From the IMG/VR virus record IMGVR_UViG_3300002053_000020, positions 1 through 55,574 of that record: a DNA stretch of 55,574 nt; one strand, written 5' to 3'. How positions within the stretch are numbered: the stretch's first letter is position 1; each line of letters starts with the position of its first letter. Shown one piece after another: positions 25,108 to 48,593 of this stretch. Below the pieces are notes generated by a model. The model did not search any database. It was not told the DNA's origin and worked only from the letters and a program-made list of their open reading frames with translations. Both the position numbers and the translations under genes were made by a program. Origin of the DNA: a virus. Its lineage: Duplodnaviria; Caudoviricetes.

Positions 25108-25194
25108 TGGTGGAGGGGGCAGGATTCGAACCTGCACGGAACTAGCCGACCACGGAGTTACAGTCCGGTGCCCTTCCTACGAGGCGTCCCCTCC
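25108..25194 (-). tRNA. tRNA-Tyr(GTA), type II, CCA encoded
   Basis: GGAGGGG/CCCCTCC acceptor stem, A73-CCA; anticodon loop CT-GTA-AC; long variable arm; GCAGG-TTCGAAT-CCTGC T arm. Confidence 0.9.
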
Positions 25195-25445
25195 ATTGCA
25201 GTCTCTCCTGCTGTCACGCCGAAGCACATTACCCTGACGTTACGGGCTGTGACTAGGGTTGCCCCTAGTAGGAAGTCTTACCCCTCCCACTTAACAACGT
25301 GATGGGCTTGATGTTTTGCAGTCGGGCCGACTTGTCCGTATTCTTTCAACGGTGAGCCGATAGCTGTTACTCGTTACCCATCTCCACGGGCGGTCGGGAA
25401 GGCTCCATGTGCTATGGGATGAGCCCCCGCCCGAGGTAAGCAAAC
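25195..25445 (-). ncRNA. Putative structured non-coding RNA immediately 5' of tRNA-Tyr
   Basis: No credible ORF; several stems: CGGGCGG/CCGCCCG, GGCTC/GAGCC, CTAGGG-GCAA-CCCTAG, GTCAC/GTGAC, GCAG-GAGAGA-CTGC. Confidence 0.6.
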
Positions 25446-42692: not shown

Positions 42693-43433
42693 ATGGAGAT
42701 TCTTAGTGAGGGCGAACGCTGGATCAGGTTGAATGAGCGGGACTATCGTTTGAAAAAACTGCAACAGTTATTGCCTGAGGTTGAAAACTGGGCAATAGAT
42801 CAAGACCCGCGGGTACGTGGCAGTAACTACTGGGGGATATGTCGGGATGCGCCCGGCGAGAACGTGGTGGTGAACCTGTCGTATGAGGGAGGTAAGCAGG
42901 GCGGGTATGAAGGCGAGGATCTGTTAATAGATTATTATGATGTGATGAGGGCATTCCCTGAGTTGAAGGAGTTGTTCAGGGAGTTGGAGTTGCAGCCTTA
43001 CCTTGGCAGGAACAGTATTGGGAATTGGGGGATACACCGGCATTGTTATAACCCGTTATCCCGGTGGAACCTAGTCTTGCTTGGGGAGGGGAATGATGGC
43101 GGCGAGGGAATTTTTTTTAGGAACCACCCGGAGTGCCCAGAAGACCCGGACTTCGACTATGTCGTGGACTACTTGGCGGAGGGGGAGTCGGTCGAGGAGA
43201 TTGAGAGATGCGCCTTGGCGGAGAGACAAGCCTACTCCATAGACACTTGGACTTGGCACTCGCACCTGAGCCCTCATGAGAAGGCGGTAGCTTGGTTGAT
43301 GCACTTCAAGTACGCAGACAGGAAGGAAAGCGTCAAGGATGTGTTGAGGCACCTAGAGACTTGGGGACTGAGGCGGATACAGTGGAGGCTATCAAAGCAA
43401 CATAAGTACCGGCATGGGACACATGAAGTTTAA
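42693..43433 (+). CDS. Cupin / DSBH metalloprotein, related to 2524-3620
   Basis: GIHRH...WNLV...YSIDTWTWHSH gives HxH...H in a similar layout to the oxygenase-like paralogs. Confidence 0.55.
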   Translation: MEILSEGERWIRLNERDYRLKKLQQLLPEVENWAIDQDPRVRGSNYWGICRDAPGENVVVNLSYEGGKQGGYEGEDLLIDYYDVMRAFPELKELFRELELQPYLGRNSIGNWGIHRHCYNPLSRWNLVLLGEGNDGGEGIFFRNHPECPEDPDFDYVVDYLAEGESVEEIERCALAERQAYSIDTWTWHSHLSPHEKAVAWLMHFKYADRKESVKDVLRHLETWGLRRIQWRLSKQHKYRHGTHEV

Positions 43434-43440
43434 CAAAGGG

Positions 43441-43469
43441 GTGTCAAATCAAACAACATATGTTATTAT
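43441..43469 (+). promoter_or_regulatory. Candidate promoter for the tRNA cluster
   Basis: GTGTCA-17 bp-TATTAT with extended -10 TGn. Confidence 0.45.
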
Positions 43470-43501
43470 TCTGCAAAATCAAATTCGTGTGCATATATAG
43501 T

Positions 43502-43576
43502 GGCGGGATAGCTCAGGGGTAGAGCAGAGGGCTCATAATTCTCAGGTCACTGGTTCAAATCCAGTTCCCGCAACCA
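43502..43576 (+). tRNA. tRNA-Met(CAT), initiator-like, CCA encoded
   Basis: Cloverleaf; anticodon loop CT-CAT-AA; 1:72 mismatch (G.A); anticodon stem GAGGG/TTCTC. Confidence 0.9.
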
Positions 43577-43585
43577 GTCACAGAG

Positions 43586-43825
43586 TCAAGCTAAGGCAAC
43601 GCAGACATACTGACATCCAGCCTATCGAAGAAGCTCACTACAGATGTCGAGGTCGGGATTCCCGGGGAGAGTCATTGATACTCCATGATCCGGAAATAAA
43701 CCTTGGAAACCCGTGCGGCTAGGATCTAGAGCCTAGTGCCTTAGCCCCTTTACTATGGCCAGCGCCGTGCGGTAATGAAGATGACTAAGGGATCACGGAC
43801 TCCCAGATTCTAAGCCATAGACCTT
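43586..43825 (+). ncRNA. Putative structured non-coding RNA between tRNA-Met and tRNA-Trp
   Basis: GCTAAGGCA(43590)/TGCCTTAGC(43737) closes a multi-helix domain; CTATGGC(43753)/GCCATAG(43814) closes a second domain; no ORF. Confidence 0.65.
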
Positions 43826-43829
43826 TTAT

Positions 43830-43880
43830 GCCCCCTGCTCCACCTACTTTGAGATTGGTGTGACCGGGGGGCTTTTCTTT
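43830..43880 (+). terminator. Terminator-like hairpin inside the tRNA cluster
   Basis: GCCCCCTG...CGGGGGGC followed by TTTTCTTT. Confidence 0.55.
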
Positions 43881-43884
43881 CTAC

Positions 43885-43958
43885 TACTCATTGGTGTAAC
43901 AGCAGCATTGCAGTCTCCAAAACTGTTGGCGGGGGTGCAAATCCCTCATGAGTAGCCA
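43885..43958 (+). tRNA. tRNA-Trp(CCA), CCA encoded
   Basis: TACTCAT/ATGAGTA acceptor stem; loop CT-CCA-AA; variant T loop TGCAAAT. Confidence 0.85.
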
Positions 43959-43959
43959 T

Positions 43960-44035
43960 TGCAAGGTAGCTCAGTTGGCAGAGCAACTCCCTGTTAAGGA
44001 GAAGTGCGTAGGTTCGAAGCCTGCCCTTGCAGCCA
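43960..44035 (+). tRNA. tRNA-Asn(GTT), CCA encoded
   Basis: TGCAAGG/CCTTGCA acceptor stem; G73; loop CT-GTT-AA; TTCGAAG T loop. Confidence 0.9.
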
Positions 44036-44043
44036 TTTTCAAT

Positions 44044-44122
44044 GCGGGTCAACAAGCGCAAGGGGCGCGCAGCAGCCTTCCAAGCTGACGACCGCGGAGT
44101 TCGACTCTCCTGATCCGCTCCA
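44044..44122 (+). tRNA. tRNA-Gly(TCC), atypical D arm, CCA encoded
   Basis: GCGGGTC/GATCCGC acceptor stem; U73; loop CT-TCC-AA; TTCGACT T loop; non-canonical 8-14 region. Confidence 0.75.
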
Positions 44123-44134
44123 CTTATTATTTTT

Positions 44135-44395
44135 ATGATCACGATCCGTGAAATTCAGAACTTCCTGAACAGCTTCGAAGCCCTGCGCGGGATCGAGGTG
44201 ACGCATGAGAACGATATCAAGAAGGCAATAGCTCCCCACGTTGTCATCCTGACAGGGATGGTCAACATACATGGCACCCCTCATTTGTTTGAGGCTGAGC
44301 TGAACCTGATGGAGTTCCACAACCGAGACGACTTGATCCTCTTGGGCGGCACCATCCTCAAGGCTTTTGAAAAGGCCGGGGTTCAAAAACTATAG
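44135..44395 (+). CDS. Hypothetical protein
   Basis: ORF between the tRNAs and TerS. Confidence 0.55.
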   Translation: MITIREIQNFLNSFEALRGIEVTHENDIKKAIAPHVVILTGMVNIHGTPHLFEAELNLMEFHNRDDLILLGGTILKAFEKAGVQKL

Positions 44396-45059: not shown

Positions 45060-46490
45060 GTGTCTGAAATCGTAAACTATCGCCCCCCGGGAAAGAATGC
45101 AGCAAAGTTCCACTCCGCCGATCATTTCGTACGCGGCCTTATGGGGCCAGTTGGCTCAGGCAAGTCCTCAAGTTGCTGCGTTGAAATCGTATCTCGCGCT
45201 CTGCGACAGCGTCCGGGCCGCGATGGGATTCGCCGTTCTCGATGGCTTATTATTCGTAACACATATCCTGAACTCAAGTCCACGACCATCAAGACATGGG
45301 AGACTTGGTTCCCAGCCGACATAGCCCCGATCAAGTGGGACACGCCTATCACCTCGACGATGAAGATCGCTAACATTGGCGACGGCACCGGCATGGAACT
45401 TGAAGTCATGTTTATGGCTTTGGACAAACCTACTGAGACCGGCAAGCTTCGCTCATTGGAGTTGACAGGCGGCTGGATCAATGAGGCTTCAGAAGTACCG
45501 AAGGAAATCTTCGACATGCTCACGCAGCGTGTTGGACGTTACCCCTCCAAGTTGCACGGTGGGCCTAGCTGGTGCGGGATTATCCTTGACACCAACCCGC
45601 CGGACGACGATCACTGGTATTACAAAGTTGCCGAAGAGGAAAGGCCAGAGGCATGGGCGTTCTTCAGGCAACCCGGCGCATTGCTGCTGGTAGATGGCGA
45701 GTATGTCCCGAACCCGGAAGCCGAGAACATCCGGAACATCCCGAACGGTTACGACTACTACACCCAGCAGCTTGCAAGCAAACCCTCGGATTGGATCAAC
45801 GTATTCATCCTTGGGAACTACGGCAGCACGATGGATGGCAAGCCTGTGTACCCAGAGTACAACGACAAGATCCACTGTCTGCCTAACAACGTAGAAGCAT
45901 CCAGTGGGCTTCCGATCATTCTTGGTTGGGACTTTGGTTTGACTCCTGCATGCGTAATCATGCAAGTGTCTGGGGCTGGCAGGTTGACGATCCTAGATGA
46001 ACTCGTTTCAGAGGACATGGGTATCCGTCAGTTTGCCAACGATATCGTAAAACCTTTCCTGAGTAACAACTATGGGCACTACCAAATCGTATCTGCCGGC
46101 GATCCTGCTGGGAACATTCGCGCTCAGACTGACGAACGAACCTGCCTCCAAGAGTTGCTTGAAGCCGGAATATATACGGAACCTGCACCAACTAACGACT
46201 TTATACCGCGAAGAGAGGCGGTGGCTTTTTTCATGACCAAGATGAGCGATGGCAAACCAGCCTTCGCAATTAACCCTCGCTGCACAAATCTGCGCAAGGG
46301 TTTCCTCGGTCGATACAAATACGAACGACTGAAGACCTCCGGGCTAGCACGGTACAAAGACAGACCACTGAAGGACGGGTACTCACACATCCAAGATGCT
46401 TTGCAGTATGGATGCTTGAAAGTCCGCAGCGGCACGACACCAGCTAGAGCGAGGTCGATTCAGAAAGTTTCCTCTAGGGGATGGACATAA
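45060..46490 (+). CDS. terL: Terminase large subunit
   Basis: Walker A GPVGSGKS; RNTYPEL; Walker B WINEA; DTNPP; nuclease motifs GWDFG and HIQDALQY. Confidence 0.95.
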   Translation: MSEIVNYRPPGKNAAKFHSADHFVRGLMGPVGSGKSSSCCVEIVSRALRQRPGRDGIRRSRWLIIRNTYPELKSTTIKTWETWFPADIAPIKWDTPITSTMKIANIGDGTGMELEVMFMALDKPTETGKLRSLELTGGWINEASEVPKEIFDMLTQRVGRYPSKLHGGPSWCGIILDTNPPDDDHWYYKVAEEERPEAWAFFRQPGALLLVDGEYVPNPEAENIRNIPNGYDYYTQQLASKPSDWINVFILGNYGSTMDGKPVYPEYNDKIHCLPNNVEASSGLPIILGWDFGLTPACVIMQVSGAGRLTILDELVSEDMGIRQFANDIVKPFLSNNYGHYQIVSAGDPAGNIRAQTDERTCLQELLEAGIYTEPAPTNDFIPRREAVAFFMTKMSDGKPAFAINPRCTNLRKGFLGRYKYERLKTSGLARYKDRPLKDGYSHIQDALQYGCLKVRSGTTPARARSIQKVSSRGWT

Positions 46491-48593
46491 ATGGGATACG
46501 CAATCAACAGGCCAGAAATCGAAGTTCGCGTTGAGGGTCAGGACGACCTTCAGGAAAATGCGCGTTTCGAATCCAACCTGTCATCCTACGTTCGCAAGTG
46601 CTGGGACGAGGCAAAGACAGCTAAGGCTGTGGTGGTAGAGCGCCTGTTGAAATGTGAGCGTCAGCGCCGGGGTGAGTATGACCCTGATCGCATGATGGAG
46701 ATTCAGCGAGTCGGCGGTTCAGATATCTTTATGATGCTGACCGATGTCAAGTGCCGAGCCGCGGAGTCTTGGATCACTGACGTTATGTTGAACCAGCAGG
46801 ATCGTGTATTCGACCTGAAGGTTTCCAACAGCCCAATGATGCCCCCTGAGATGCGGCAAGCGATTGTCGATCTGGTGCGCACCGAGGCCGAGCAGTTTAT
46901 CGCTGAAGGTGGCGAGCTTCACCCAGAGACCTTCCGTGCTCGCATGGAGGAAGTACACGATGCAATCACCACCCGCCTAAAGACTGAGGCAGAAGATGCT
47001 GCTCGTCGGATGGGTGACAAGATCGAAGACCAGTTGGATCAAGGGCACTTTGGCAAAGAGCTGAAGAACTTCATCACTGACTTCACGACGTTCCCGACCG
47101 CTATCTTGAAGGGCCCGAACATCAAGAGGCGCAAGTCGATGGCGTGGGGCCCGGACTTTGCTCCGATCGTCATGGAAGCATTCAAGGAAGAGTTCGAGCG
47201 CGTGTCGCCTTACGATATCTTCCCTGCCCCTGCATCGACGGGGGTGAACGACCAATACCTGATTCACCGTCACCGCCTAAACCTGAATAGCCTACAAGCT
47301 ATGCGTGGCACCCCCGGGGTGAACAACGACGAGCTTGAGACGGTTATCCAGAAGTACGGCATGAGCGGATACCGCACTTGGATTCAAGGCGACAACGAAG
47401 AGCGCGTGCTGGCTGGCAAGCCGTTCCGCTATCCGTTGCTGTCTGGCGAGATCGAGACCATTGAGTTCTGGGGTTCGGTCACTGGGCAGTACTTGCTTGA
47501 GTGGGGAATGACTGATATTGACCCCGAGCAGATCTATGAGATCAATGCTTGGTGGACTGACGGAAACCTGTGGAAAGTGGTGCTGAACCCAGATCCATTA
47601 GGTGAGCGTCCTTACAACATAGCATCTTGGGAAGATGTGCCGCACTCCTTCTGGGGCGTGGCTCTGCCTGAGATCATGCGCGACAACCAGATCATGTGTA
47701 ACGCAGCCGCCCGTGCGATTGCGAACAACATGGCGGTAGCCTCTGGCCCACAGGTTGAGGTTACGGTTGACCGACTGCCTGATGGCGAGCAGATCACTGA
47801 GGTCTATCCTTGGAAGATCTGGCAAGCAACGTCTGACCGCACTGGTGGTGGACAACCTGCTGTGCGCTTCTTCCAGCCAAACATGAATGCCCAAGAGCTA
47901 CTGACTGTGTTCCAGCAGTTCTCCAAGCAAGCTGACGAAGTGACCGGCATCCCGAACTATGTGTACGGTTCGTCTGCTGTGTCTGGCGCTGGGCGTACGG
48001 CATCCGGTTTGTCGATGCTGATGGACAACGCGAGCAAAGGTATCAAGCAAGCAATCGCCTCGATCGACGTGGTGGTGGCTGGCGTGGTGCAGCGGCTCTA
48101 TGTCCACAACATGATGTTCGACAACGACCCGTATATCAAGGGCGACTTCAAGGTTGTTGCCAAAGGTGCAATCGGTCTGCTGCATAAAGAGACCTTGCAG
48201 ATGCGTCGCAACGAGTTCCTCATGGCAACGGCTAATCCGATTGACTCCCAGATCACCGGGGTTGAAGGCAGGGCCTACCTGTTGCGTGAAGCTGCGCGTG
48301 GCCTGCAGATGGATACCAATAAGATCGTGCCAAATCAAGACTCACTTGAGGAGCAGAAGATTCAAGCACGGGCGCAAATGCTTGCACAGCAAATGTTGCA
48401 AGACATGGCAAACCAGATGGCTCCGCAGCCGCAACAACTTCCCGCCCCACAGCAAGCAGCACCGGGCGGTATGCCGATGCAAGGCACCACAGTTCCACAG
48501 ATGGCAGATGGTGGGATGACGGGTGACTACGCAGAGGATGACTCGACAGCATCAAGAGTACTTGCGAGTCTTGCAACAAACAATATGATCTGA
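46491..48593 (+). CDS. Portal protein
   Basis: 700 aa directly after TerL; SP.DIFP, FWGV.LP, AARA..NN...SGPQ and TASGLSML motifs; Q/P-rich tail. Confidence 0.88.
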   Translation: MGYAINRPEIEVRVEGQDDLQENARFESNLSSYVRKCWDEAKTAKAVVVERLLKCERQRRGEYDPDRMMEIQRVGGSDIFMMLTDVKCRAAESWITDVMLNQQDRVFDLKVSNSPMMPPEMRQAIVDLVRTEAEQFIAEGGELHPETFRARMEEVHDAITTRLKTEAEDAARRMGDKIEDQLDQGHFGKELKNFITDFTTFPTAILKGPNIKRRKSMAWGPDFAPIVMEAFKEEFERVSPYDIFPAPASTGVNDQYLIHRHRLNLNSLQAMRGTPGVNNDELETVIQKYGMSGYRTWIQGDNEERVLAGKPFRYPLLSGEIETIEFWGSVTGQYLLEWGMTDIDPEQIYEINAWWTDGNLWKVVLNPDPLGERPYNIASWEDVPHSFWGVALPEIMRDNQIMCNAAARAIANNMAVASGPQVEVTVDRLPDGEQITEVYPWKIWQATSDRTGGGQPAVRFFQPNMNAQELLTVFQQFSKQADEVTGIPNYVYGSSAVSGAGRTASGLSMLMDNASKGIKQAIASIDVVVAGVVQRLYVHNMMFDNDPYIKGDFKVVAKGAIGLLHKETLQMRRNEFLMATANPIDSQITGVEGRAYLLREAARGLQMDTNKIVPNQDSLEEQKIQARAQMLAQQMLQDMANQMAPQPQQLPAPQQAAPGGMPMQGTTVPQMADGGMTGDYAEDDSTASRVLASLATNNMI

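Follow-up and report, generated by a model that had tools for sequence, protein, structure and literature searches.

The 308-nt gap (43577-43884) between the genes for tRNA-Met and tRNA-Trp in a 55,574-bp IMG/VR virus record, which is judged to be about 99% complete and is referred to here as the window, consists of three separate RNA modules in series: a novel structured RNA (module 1), a copy of an element from phage transfer-messenger RNA (tmRNA) genes (module 2), and a terminator-like hairpin (module 3). Phage tRNA arrays are usually annotated as tRNAs with meaningless spacers between them, and the spacer considered here resolves into two undescribed RNA families. We are confident that modules 1 and 2 represent genuine conserved RNA elements, and the structures of the spacer are judged to be real because homologues, not folding energy, carry the evidence. 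The new aspects are the two RNA families without described counterparts and an unexpected link to phage tmRNA genes; non-tRNA RNAs in phage tRNA operons as such are of a known kind. The modules are arranged as follows.

43590-43745, + strand: module 1, a structured RNA of 156 nt (minimum free energy (MFE) fold and five homologues)
43752-43825, + strand: module 2, a copy of the intervening-segment element of permuted phage tmRNA genes (covariance model R1)
43830-43881, + strand: module 3, a terminator-like hairpin (43830-43872) with a T-rich run

A preliminary description of the window had proposed one or two novel non-coding RNAs in this gap, composed of a domain 1 (now module 1), a domain 2 (now module 2), and a following hairpin. 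The gap and every helix listed there are indeed present, as judged from ARAGORN, Rfam, and the sequence, and folding of 43590-43745 alone recovers the pairings CGCA/TGCG, GACATC/GATGTC, GAGGT/ACCTT, CCGG/CCGG, GGAG/CTCC, and CTAGG/CCTAG. Compensatory changes in homologues support the helices drawn for domain 1 and both helices of domain 2, and a hairpin with a T-run does follow domain 2. The proposed number of RNAs comes close to what is found, but the stretch is not one multi-domain RNA, as the presence of domain 2 does not depend on that of domain 1: domain 2 behaves as a clean indel, which is found in the window and in the metagenome contig L102 and is absent from the IMG/VR contig L002 and the metagenome contig L100.

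The pairing within this single sequence is not beyond chance, the hairpin excepted. The fold of the whole spacer (z -0.48) is equalled by 27 of 100 shuffles, that of domain 1 (43590-43745; z -1.59) by 15 of 200, and that of domain 2 (z +0.13) by 113 of 200, whereas none of 200 shuffles is as good as the hairpin (43830-43881; z -4.83). Even a perfect 9-bp inverted repeat, as present in module 1, arises in 238 of 2000 shuffles of the spacer. A folding energy no better than that of shuffled controls had been named beforehand as a finding which would speak against a structured RNA, and the value for the spacer is of exactly this kind. It is not decisive, however, because the comparative evidence from homologues reverses its verdict (see below). 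As a test, folding energy gave no information on the whole spacer, on either strand, or on domains 1 and 2.

With respect to known families, a search of the spacer against Rfam 15 gives no family match, not even at E<=10, just two hits being recorded in its 308 nt, both with E values of 6-7, which agrees with the earlier assignment as a non-coding structured RNA outside the described families. No tRNA (RF00005) is recognized in 43577-43884 by ARAGORN, nor is there any match to the tRNA clan at E<=10, and no tmRNA (RF00023, RF01849-51, RF04321) is detected in the window by either ARAGORN or Rfam, which were positive for four of five (ARAGORN) and five of five (Rfam) comparison loci. Hammerhead, twister, twister-sister, pistol, hatchet, and hairpin ribozymes give no Rfam match at E<=10 in 43577-43884, L133:7236-7345, or L061:1560-1900, and neither the models of ribozymes resembling that of hepatitis delta virus (HDV) nor the glnA and Downstream-peptide models match the spacer or a tmRNA intervening segment at the same threshold. 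The two domains contain no open reading frame (ORF) of at least 20 aa. Shorter frames were rejected by eye, one of 14 codons in module 1 for showing five non-synonymous versus two synonymous differences between the window and L002, and one of 11-12 codons in module 2 for being invariant at all three codon positions with a freely variable codon before the stop.

Structure and distribution of module 1

The architecture of module 1 consists of a long terminal helix, P1, which closes a three-way junction of P2 and P6, and of P2 opening into P3 and P4. The individual parts are located as follows.

43590-98/43737-45: P1, a perfect 9-bp inverted repeat
43600-03/43714-17: P2
43612-17/43643-48: P3
43649-53/43700-04: P4
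43658-65/43690-97: P5
43666-69/43681-84: P5a
43719-23/43732-36: P6
43654-43657, + strand: CGGG in the P4 loop, candidate pseudoknot partner of 43710-43713
43710-43713, + strand: CCCG, a conserved single strand between P4 and P2 within a 19-nt stretch identical in the window and L061, candidate partner of 43654-57

Four close copies of this RNA were found by nhmmer and exact-pattern scans, namely in the window, on the L002 contig, and on the metagenome contigs L100 and L102. Taken alone, they contain one compensatory pair and three wobble-compatible changes, which is no different from shuffles. Between the window and L002, the changes counted in P1, P2, P5, and P6 preserve pairing (by eye), one change in P5a breaks a pair, and most of the others fall into predicted loops; a 1-nt insertion in the 3' strand of P1 was scored as unpaired by MAFFT.

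A fifth, diverged copy at L061:1622-1760 is recognized by a covariance model made from the four close copies without L061 (model R2; 27.8 bits, E 1.8e-4 in 795 kb). This copy is syntenic with that of the window, being located on the same strand and in the same place relative to the small ORFs and the gene of the large terminase (TerL), which is 70% identical. Four pairs of P1 and all five pairs of P6 are changed in L061, and pairing is kept in both helices. Over the five sequences, 96.9% of the cells pair and 12 of the 41 pairs are compensatory, a value reached by none of 500 shuffles, and only 29-42% of the cells pair if the structures are slid by one to three columns. The same helices are obtained by RNAalifold from the five sequences and by independent MFE folds of the window and L061 copies. 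Like the window copy, the L061 form gives no Rfam match (E<=10).

L061 retains a core of about 35 nt, with no difference from the window in the 19-nt stretch or in the P4 region. In place of the P5 arm, which has 41 nt in the window, L061 has 2 nt, and its P3 is a longer hairpin of unrelated sequence. The tip of P3 and the P5 arm are dispensable. P2, P4, and the single strand that links P4 to P2 make up the conserved core, which probably also includes the CGGG/CCCG pairing. The latter two motifs are complementary and invariant in all five homologues and probably form a pseudoknot in the core of the module, a proposal drawn from sequence complementarity alone because both strands never vary. 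The module 1 family is of interest for combining an architecture supported by covariation with such a small invariant core.

Models R2 and R3, applied to 183 loci, yield no members beyond these five. A match on L116 of 12-16 bits was rejected as a chance match in apparent coding sequence (by eye), and so was an IMG/VR pattern hit on L094, which lies in a coding region, the other IMG/VR find being the L002 contig. The exact-pattern scan of metagenomes returned 11 stretches, two of which are real, and that of genome contigs returned 15, none of them real, with about 17 expected by chance. Among 50,697 phage records searched by blastn with 43400-44200, matches were confined to the tRNA parts. When the conserved P3 loop was examined as a possible antisense sequence, no second match with up to three mismatches was obtained in the window.

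Module 2 and the intervening segment of phage tmRNA genes

Module 2 (43752-43825) matches a covariance model made from 29 tmRNA-context copies, with the window left out (model R1), at 68 bits (E 4.6e-20) and over the full model length (positions 1-80). Its two helices are listed here.

43753-59/43814-20: outer stem, CTATGGC/GCCATAG
43765-69/43794-98: inner stem, CCGTG/CACGG

The lead to this family was a metatranscriptome contig which matches only the core of module 2 and carries it beside a tmRNA-like 3' end. Pattern scans located the core in 65 other IMG/VR contigs, representing 31 distinct contexts, and in each of the 29 full-length distinct contexts the element is placed between ..CCACCA and GGG. 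The segment in question is the intervening segment of permuted beta-type tmRNA genes, as called by ARAGORN at four of the five loci examined and by Rfam (RF01850 and RF04321) at all five. The stem of the element begins 1 nt past the CCA in these contexts, and the element amounts to a 77-nt insertion where the beta_tmRNA model of Rfam expects 18 nt; one bacterial permuted tmRNA inspected has an intervening segment of 5 nt. According to the part of one account that deals with these genes, the intervening sequence is absent from mature tmRNA after the transcript has been cut by tRNA-processing enzymes, and it is treated there as a discarded spacer, occasionally holding a tRNA gene or a repeat (PMC11915505).

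The element family shares a 12-bp outer stem, an internal loop of 5 nt/17 nt, a 5-bp inner stem (CCGTG/CACGG), and a 24-nt loop. In the alignment, 96.9% of the cells pair and 8 of the 17 pairs are compensatory, which none of 500 shuffles reaches. The outer stem is freely variable and the unpaired loops are nearly invariant even outside the 20 nt of the search pattern, which are invariant by construction; the remaining invariant positions are not forced. Module 2 is thus a homologue of the element that fills the intervening segment of permuted tmRNA genes (RF01850/RF04321), with both helices and the whole 24-nt loop retained, but the window is devoid of a tmRNA. The outer stem of the window copy is shortened from 12 bp to 7 bp, and the internal loop has a 3' strand of 15 nt instead of 17 nt, with a 2-nt deletion and two substitutions. 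It is located between module 1 and the hairpin, not between tmRNA pieces or beside a CCA end. In outer-stem sequence and 3' flank it is similar, by eye, to the variant present on L131/L136. The earlier statement that the spacer does not match the tmRNA consensus stands insofar as the window gives no tmRNA match, but domain 2 is not unrelated to tmRNA, as it belongs to the element of permuted tmRNA intervening segments. The family joins two previously unconnected contexts, the tRNA operon and the discarded segment of the two-piece tmRNA genes of phages, and this suggests that the "discarded" segment is a functional, portable module.

The element was searched for in further places. Model R1 gives no match over L002-L101, and cultured phages contain no blastn match to the tmRNA with its element. 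The core occurs in 4 of 401 sampled bacterial genomes of one class at two mismatches (reversed control, 1), none of them with the flanking element. In the literature, no description of module 1 or of the module 2 element was found, nor do the core motif sequences occur in any of the papers searched, with about 1.7 million PMC articles and supplements lying outside the search. A catalogue derived from IMG/VR contains 8495 candidate structured RNAs of 29-151 nt from intergenic regions of phages (PMC10690425); tmRNA intervening segments are not mentioned in the portion of its main text that was available, and the module 2 family may already be listed in it. A tmRNA gene with an embedded glutamine riboswitch has been described from a marine phage, in which the riboswitch resides in the 3' domain and not in the intervening segment (PMC9004378).

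Several other interpretations of module 2 were discarded. An nhmmer alignment of domain 2 to the tRNA-Met of L005, which would have made it a decayed tRNA, was anchored on the hairpin, and this reading was dropped because the homology to tmRNA segments appeared. A promoter within the element family was rejected by eye, as variable positions fall on the best-conserved bases of the -10 hexamer and the window has its deletion there. The GGGA/TCCC pseudoknot suggested in the preliminary description lacks compensatory support in the element family, as does the alternative GGAT/ATCC register. Of the 21 distinct sequences, 7 disrupt one of the pairs, and the linker of 2 nt seems too short (by eye).

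Some observations on tmRNA genes may be added. In the distant relative L013, whose upstream protein is 31% identical, the locus is occupied on the opposite strand by a permuted tmRNA (L013:4627-5031, - strand) with the tag ANDEVYALAA; the intervening segment of this tmRNA is long and different and does not match model R1. L122 and L130, which carry a permuted tmRNA with the element, have arrays of 19 tRNA genes within a few kb. As seen by eye in L121-L185, the 5 nt past the acceptor 3' strand (ACCA+1) can pair at four of five positions with the 5 nt ahead of the first G of the coding piece. This pairing would join the acceptor stem to the 12-bp outer stem in one near-continuous duplex of about 24 bp, which may constitute a site for a double-strand-specific nuclease in the precursor.

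Exchange of RNA genes at the tRNA locus

The window contains four tRNA genes as identified by ARAGORN and Rfam, three of which are clustered on the + strand. The cluster and its upstream region are composed as follows.

43441-43469, + strand: promoter-like site of the sigma-70 type (GTGTCA, 17 nt, TATTAT with a preceding TG), from a consensus scan, upstream of tRNA-Met
43502-43576, + strand: tRNA-Met (CAT), which anchors the locus (called by ARAGORN and Rfam; 59.1 bits)
43577-43589, + strand: linker of 13 nt between the CCA end of tRNA-Met and P1 of module 1 (from alignments; 5 nt in L100 and L102)
43885-43958, + strand: tRNA-Trp (CCA) (ARAGORN and Rfam)
43960-44035, + strand: tRNA-Asn (GTT) (ARAGORN and Rfam)

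The spacer between tRNA-Trp and tRNA-Asn measures 1 nt. The stretch 43440-43501 with the promoter-like site is identical in L002 and shows 89-97% identity in other relatives, in agreement with the location of the spacer in a tRNA operon. Relatives of the locus were gathered via the 246-aa protein encoded upstream (12 loci) and via TerL (the best 80 of 167 relatives), and the 50 distinct IMG/VR loci with at least 1.6 kb upstream of TerL were counted. tRNA-Met is present at this place in 27 of these 50 loci, corresponding to 27 of the 32 with a TerL identity of at least 75% and to none of the 18 more distant ones. It may be followed by nothing, by the hairpin only, by tRNA-Pro, by tRNA-Trp, or by other non-coding stretches. 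One such stretch, which is G+C-rich, different from the modules, and about 130 nt long, follows tRNA-Met at L021:4015-4150 and L041:3140-3200, with the first 50 nt or so in common, and may represent a further RNA cassette.

The RNA genes of the locus are exchanged as units, and modules 1 and 2 behave like tRNA genes in this respect, because sequence identity is mosaic between relatives. The window and L002 share flanks of 95-99% identity, compared to 75% for tRNA-Met, 88% for module 1, and 81% for tRNA-Trp. Conversely, most flanks are about 80% identical (67-91%) between the window and L100 or L102, compared to 96-98% for module 1, and module 2 and tRNA-Asn are 100% identical between the window and L102. 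An imperfect direct repeat, AGCCCCTTTA / AGACCTTTTA, is found on the two sides of module 2. L102 further contains an ORF for a 111-aa PD-(D/E)XK endonuclease (L102:2142-2477; PDDEXK_5, Pfam E 3.7e-24) between the promoter-like site and tRNA-Met, apparently an insertion of the homing type. By eye, L100 has the same ORF, and L003 and L010 have similar ones. A GC-rich paired leader precedes the ORF in L102, and its stop codon is inside the tRNA gene.

Module 3 consists of the stem at 43830-43872 followed by TTTTCTTTC, and tRNA-Trp begins within 4 nt of it. Its apical loop (43845-43856) comprises 12 nt, contains GAGATTG, and is conserved, and the stem beneath covaries; in the relatives, which possess module 3 both with and without modules 1 and 2, 97.3% of the cells pair and three pairs are compensatory. 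The loop is more conserved than a plain terminator requires, and a longer version of it occurs in L010 and L011. Module 3 was left uncalled by the terminator scan, which is limited to loops of 8 nt. Any termination at this site must be partial, because tRNA genes follow and a contig from an RNA library crosses it.

With regard to expression, 20 public sequencing runs from 17 studies were listed as holding part of the stretch, and four of them were examined. The metatranscriptome X7 yields a 496-nt contig of the L102 type, which extends from 15 nt before tRNA-Met through modules 1-3 into tRNA-Asn, and X16, a metatranscriptome from another study, yields a 213-nt contig over 43677-43875. These contigs hint at transcription of the modules.

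Proposed roles, competing explanations, and neighbouring features

The explanation that we favor, to which as a whole (array, processing, and roles) we assign a probability somewhat better than even, is that modules 1 and 2 are stable RNAs cut from the transcript of the tRNA operon. The array would be transcribed as one RNA from the promoter-like site at 43441-69, and the host enzymes of tRNA processing would free the tRNAs, with RNase P acting on their 5' sides and endo- and exonucleases on their 3' sides. Modules 1 and 2 would be left over as discrete RNAs, resistant to exonucleases through their paired ends, and module 3 would represent the hairpin and T-run ending the tRNA-Met unit in the relatives. 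The closing helices of both modules in the window are followed by N-C-C (CCC at 43746-48 for module 1 and ACC at 43821-23 for module 2), which may be likened to the acceptor stem of a tRNA. Module 1 would then most likely act in trans as an accessory stable RNA, binding a protein or RNA partner via its conserved junction core, and would be gained, lost, and exchanged in the manner of accessory tRNAs. Module 2 would most likely be an autonomous "between-genes" module that defines or insulates RNA ends, because its family always fills a stretch excised between two mature RNA ends.

The tRNA cluster of phage T4 encodes small stable RNAs (species 1 and 2, or RNA C and D) of 100-150 nt, which are not tRNAs, are co-transcribed and co-processed with the phage tRNAs, and are dispensable. 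These RNAs may be regarded as the nearest precedent in kind for the modules, a likeness that refers to their general description. The 3' external transcribed spacer RNAs of bacterial tRNA operons are another example of functional RNAs in the non-tRNA parts of such transcripts. Compared to tRNAs and the tRNA-like domain of tmRNA, module 1 is similar in having a terminal helix followed by N-C-C, with the 5-bp P6 abutting its 3' strand like a T arm, but differs in lacking a cloverleaf, T- and D-loop sequences, and a G-U at the third pair, and in the 9 bp of its terminal helix.

A number of observations weigh against this explanation or parts of it. Modules 1 and 2 fold no better than shuffles, module 1 is rare (2 of the 50 distinct related IMG/VR loci plus two metagenome contigs), and its covariation stems almost wholly from one sequence, L061, with an alignment fitted to the model. 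There is no tRNA near the L061 copy, and its closing helix is followed by TCTT instead of NCC; tRNA-linked processing therefore cannot be essential to the module 1 family. The module 2 copy of the window has lost 5 of the 12 outer-stem pairs and differs at positions invariant in the tmRNA-context set, and it could be a decaying relic. The high identity of modules between distant phages may reflect recent transfer instead of selection, and with a hairpin and T-run in the middle of the array, co-transcription of the downstream tRNAs would depend on read-through. Finally, the metatranscriptome contigs reveal neither the ends nor the strand of the RNAs and may derive from DNA carried over into RNA libraries.

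An alternative is that module 2, and perhaps module 1, are end-maturation ribozymes, which cleave themselves to set the ends of neighbouring tRNA-like RNAs. The placement of the module 2 family would fit this, since the element always follows a CCA 3' end, with its stem starting 1 nt past the CCA, and precedes the 5' end of another RNA. Its near-invariant loops and freely varying outer stem resemble the cores of small ribozymes, and a stable stem right after the CCA would block 3' exonucleases and may therefore call for an endonucleolytic cut. That phages use ribozymes for end maturation is indicated by the theta ribozymes, small structured RNAs directly downstream of the 3' ends of phage tRNAs, which are proposed to mature these ends; their cleavage sites are located within +/-5 nt of the tRNA end, and >80% of them came from gut phages (PMC10879173). 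By analogy of its tRNA-adjacent position, the theta ribozyme is the closest functional counterpart of the modules, but its defining fold is not found in them: there is no match to an HDV-like or any other ribozyme family of Rfam 15 at E<=10, the first and last strands pair together in a topology which is not HDV-like and has no nested double pseudoknot, and the sole candidate pseudoknot of module 2 is the one without compensation and broken in 7 of 21 distinct sequences. In addition, module 1 starts 13 nt (window) or 5 nt (L100, L102) past the CCA, the module 2 copy of the window is neither beside a CCA end nor beside a tRNA, and this phage group is known from aquatic and sediment metagenomes. 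Taken together, self-cleavage appears unlikely.

We give a similarly low probability to module 1 being a cis-acting leader, i.e., a riboswitch-like or antitermination RNA governing the read-through of the hairpin into the tRNAs and packaging genes. It is true that module 1 is always located upstream of the small ORFs and TerL on the same strand, even in the tRNA-less L061, that the order in L100 is module 1, hairpin with T-run, and start of the ORF, that the conserved junction core may resemble a binding pocket, and that the 3' strand of the hairpin offers a potential pairing partner for AGCCCC at the end of P1. However, a complementarity of 6 nt is weak, and the hairpin occurs with the same sequence in relatives without module 1, which argues against a dedicated expression platform. 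Moreover, 75 nt of module 2 separate module 1 from the hairpin in the window and L102, the window has three tRNA-type genes separating the hairpin from the ORF, and in L061 no comparable terminator follows module 1.

The modules might also be relics, i.e., tRNA or tmRNA genes which recombination at a hot spot has reduced to decaying remnants and which look conserved through recent transfer. The sporadic distribution (module 1 in 2 of 50 related loci), the near-identity of modules between otherwise diverged phages, the truncated window copy of module 2 with its changes at otherwise invariant positions, the permuted tmRNA of the distant relative L013 at the same locus, and the unremarkable folding energies of modules 1 and 2 would all be compatible with this. 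Yet L061 retains every core helix of module 1 despite the complete sequence turnover of P1 and P6, which is unlike decay, and the L002 allele still pairs through the changes in P1, P2, P5, and P6. Module 1 bears no sequence marks of a tRNA or tmRNA, and module 2 keeps both helices and the whole 24-nt loop. A relic origin of the modules is accordingly regarded as improbable.

Least likely of all, the modules would be selfish cassettes without function for the phage, spreading with or as targets of homing-type endonucleases, as might be suspected from the PD-(D/E)XK ORF at the locus in L102 (Pfam) and, by eye, in L100, L003, and L010, from an HNH-like motif seen by eye in the ORF that immediately precedes the L061 copy, from the direct repeat flanking module 2, and from the mosaic phylogeny, but mobility accounts for spread and not for compensatory changes at the RNA level or an invariant core, the window and L002 carry modules without an endonuclease ORF, and the tRNA genes of the locus are equally mosaic and presumably useful to the phage.

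A more far-reaching reading may be envisaged, to which we attach only a slight probability. The modules would be portable "punctuation" RNAs, in which the element shared by tRNA operons and tmRNA genes represents a new self-cleaving or nuclease-guiding class that sets tRNA-like ends independently of the usual host pathway, and module 1 is an effector with a pseudoknotted three-way-junction core, serving as a decoy for a host factor such as a tRNA-directed defence nuclease or a processing enzyme. Should either RNA act in end maturation or host takeover, this would extend the RNA tools that phages possess of their own for making or protecting tRNA-like molecules, an idea raised by the theta ribozymes. 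Both families are small (about 80 nt for the element and 130-160 nt for module 1) and suited to direct biochemical and structural tests.

The remaining features considered in the window are listed below.

25108-25194: tRNA-Tyr
44043-44119, + strand: non-canonical, CCA-ending tRNA-like gene, starting 7-8 nt past tRNA-Asn and not called by ARAGORN
45060-46490: TerL, the large terminase
46491-48593: portal

Directly upstream of tRNA-Tyr, the stretch 25195-25445 (- strand) had been named as a second candidate in the preliminary description; neither covariance model matches it, Rfam at E<=5 gives chance hits only, and its fold has a z value of -1.34 (21 of 200 shuffles). The tRNA cluster is followed by three small ORFs without a family match, then by TerL and the portal gene. 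The phage group, which is uncultured and keeps this variable RNA-gene locus a short distance ahead of its packaging genes, is found in aquatic and sediment metagenomes, and no host can be named for the phage because the best TerL match from a cultured phage, its closest cultured relative, is just 46% identical. The tRNA-like gene at 44043-44119 obtains 27.9 bits with the tRNA-Sec model, which is below the cut-off of 47, and displays by eye a 7-bp acceptor stem, an anticodon loop reading TCC, and 5 nt rather than 2 nt ahead of the D stem. The gene shares 97-100% identity with its counterparts in L002, L003, and L004 despite differing flanks.

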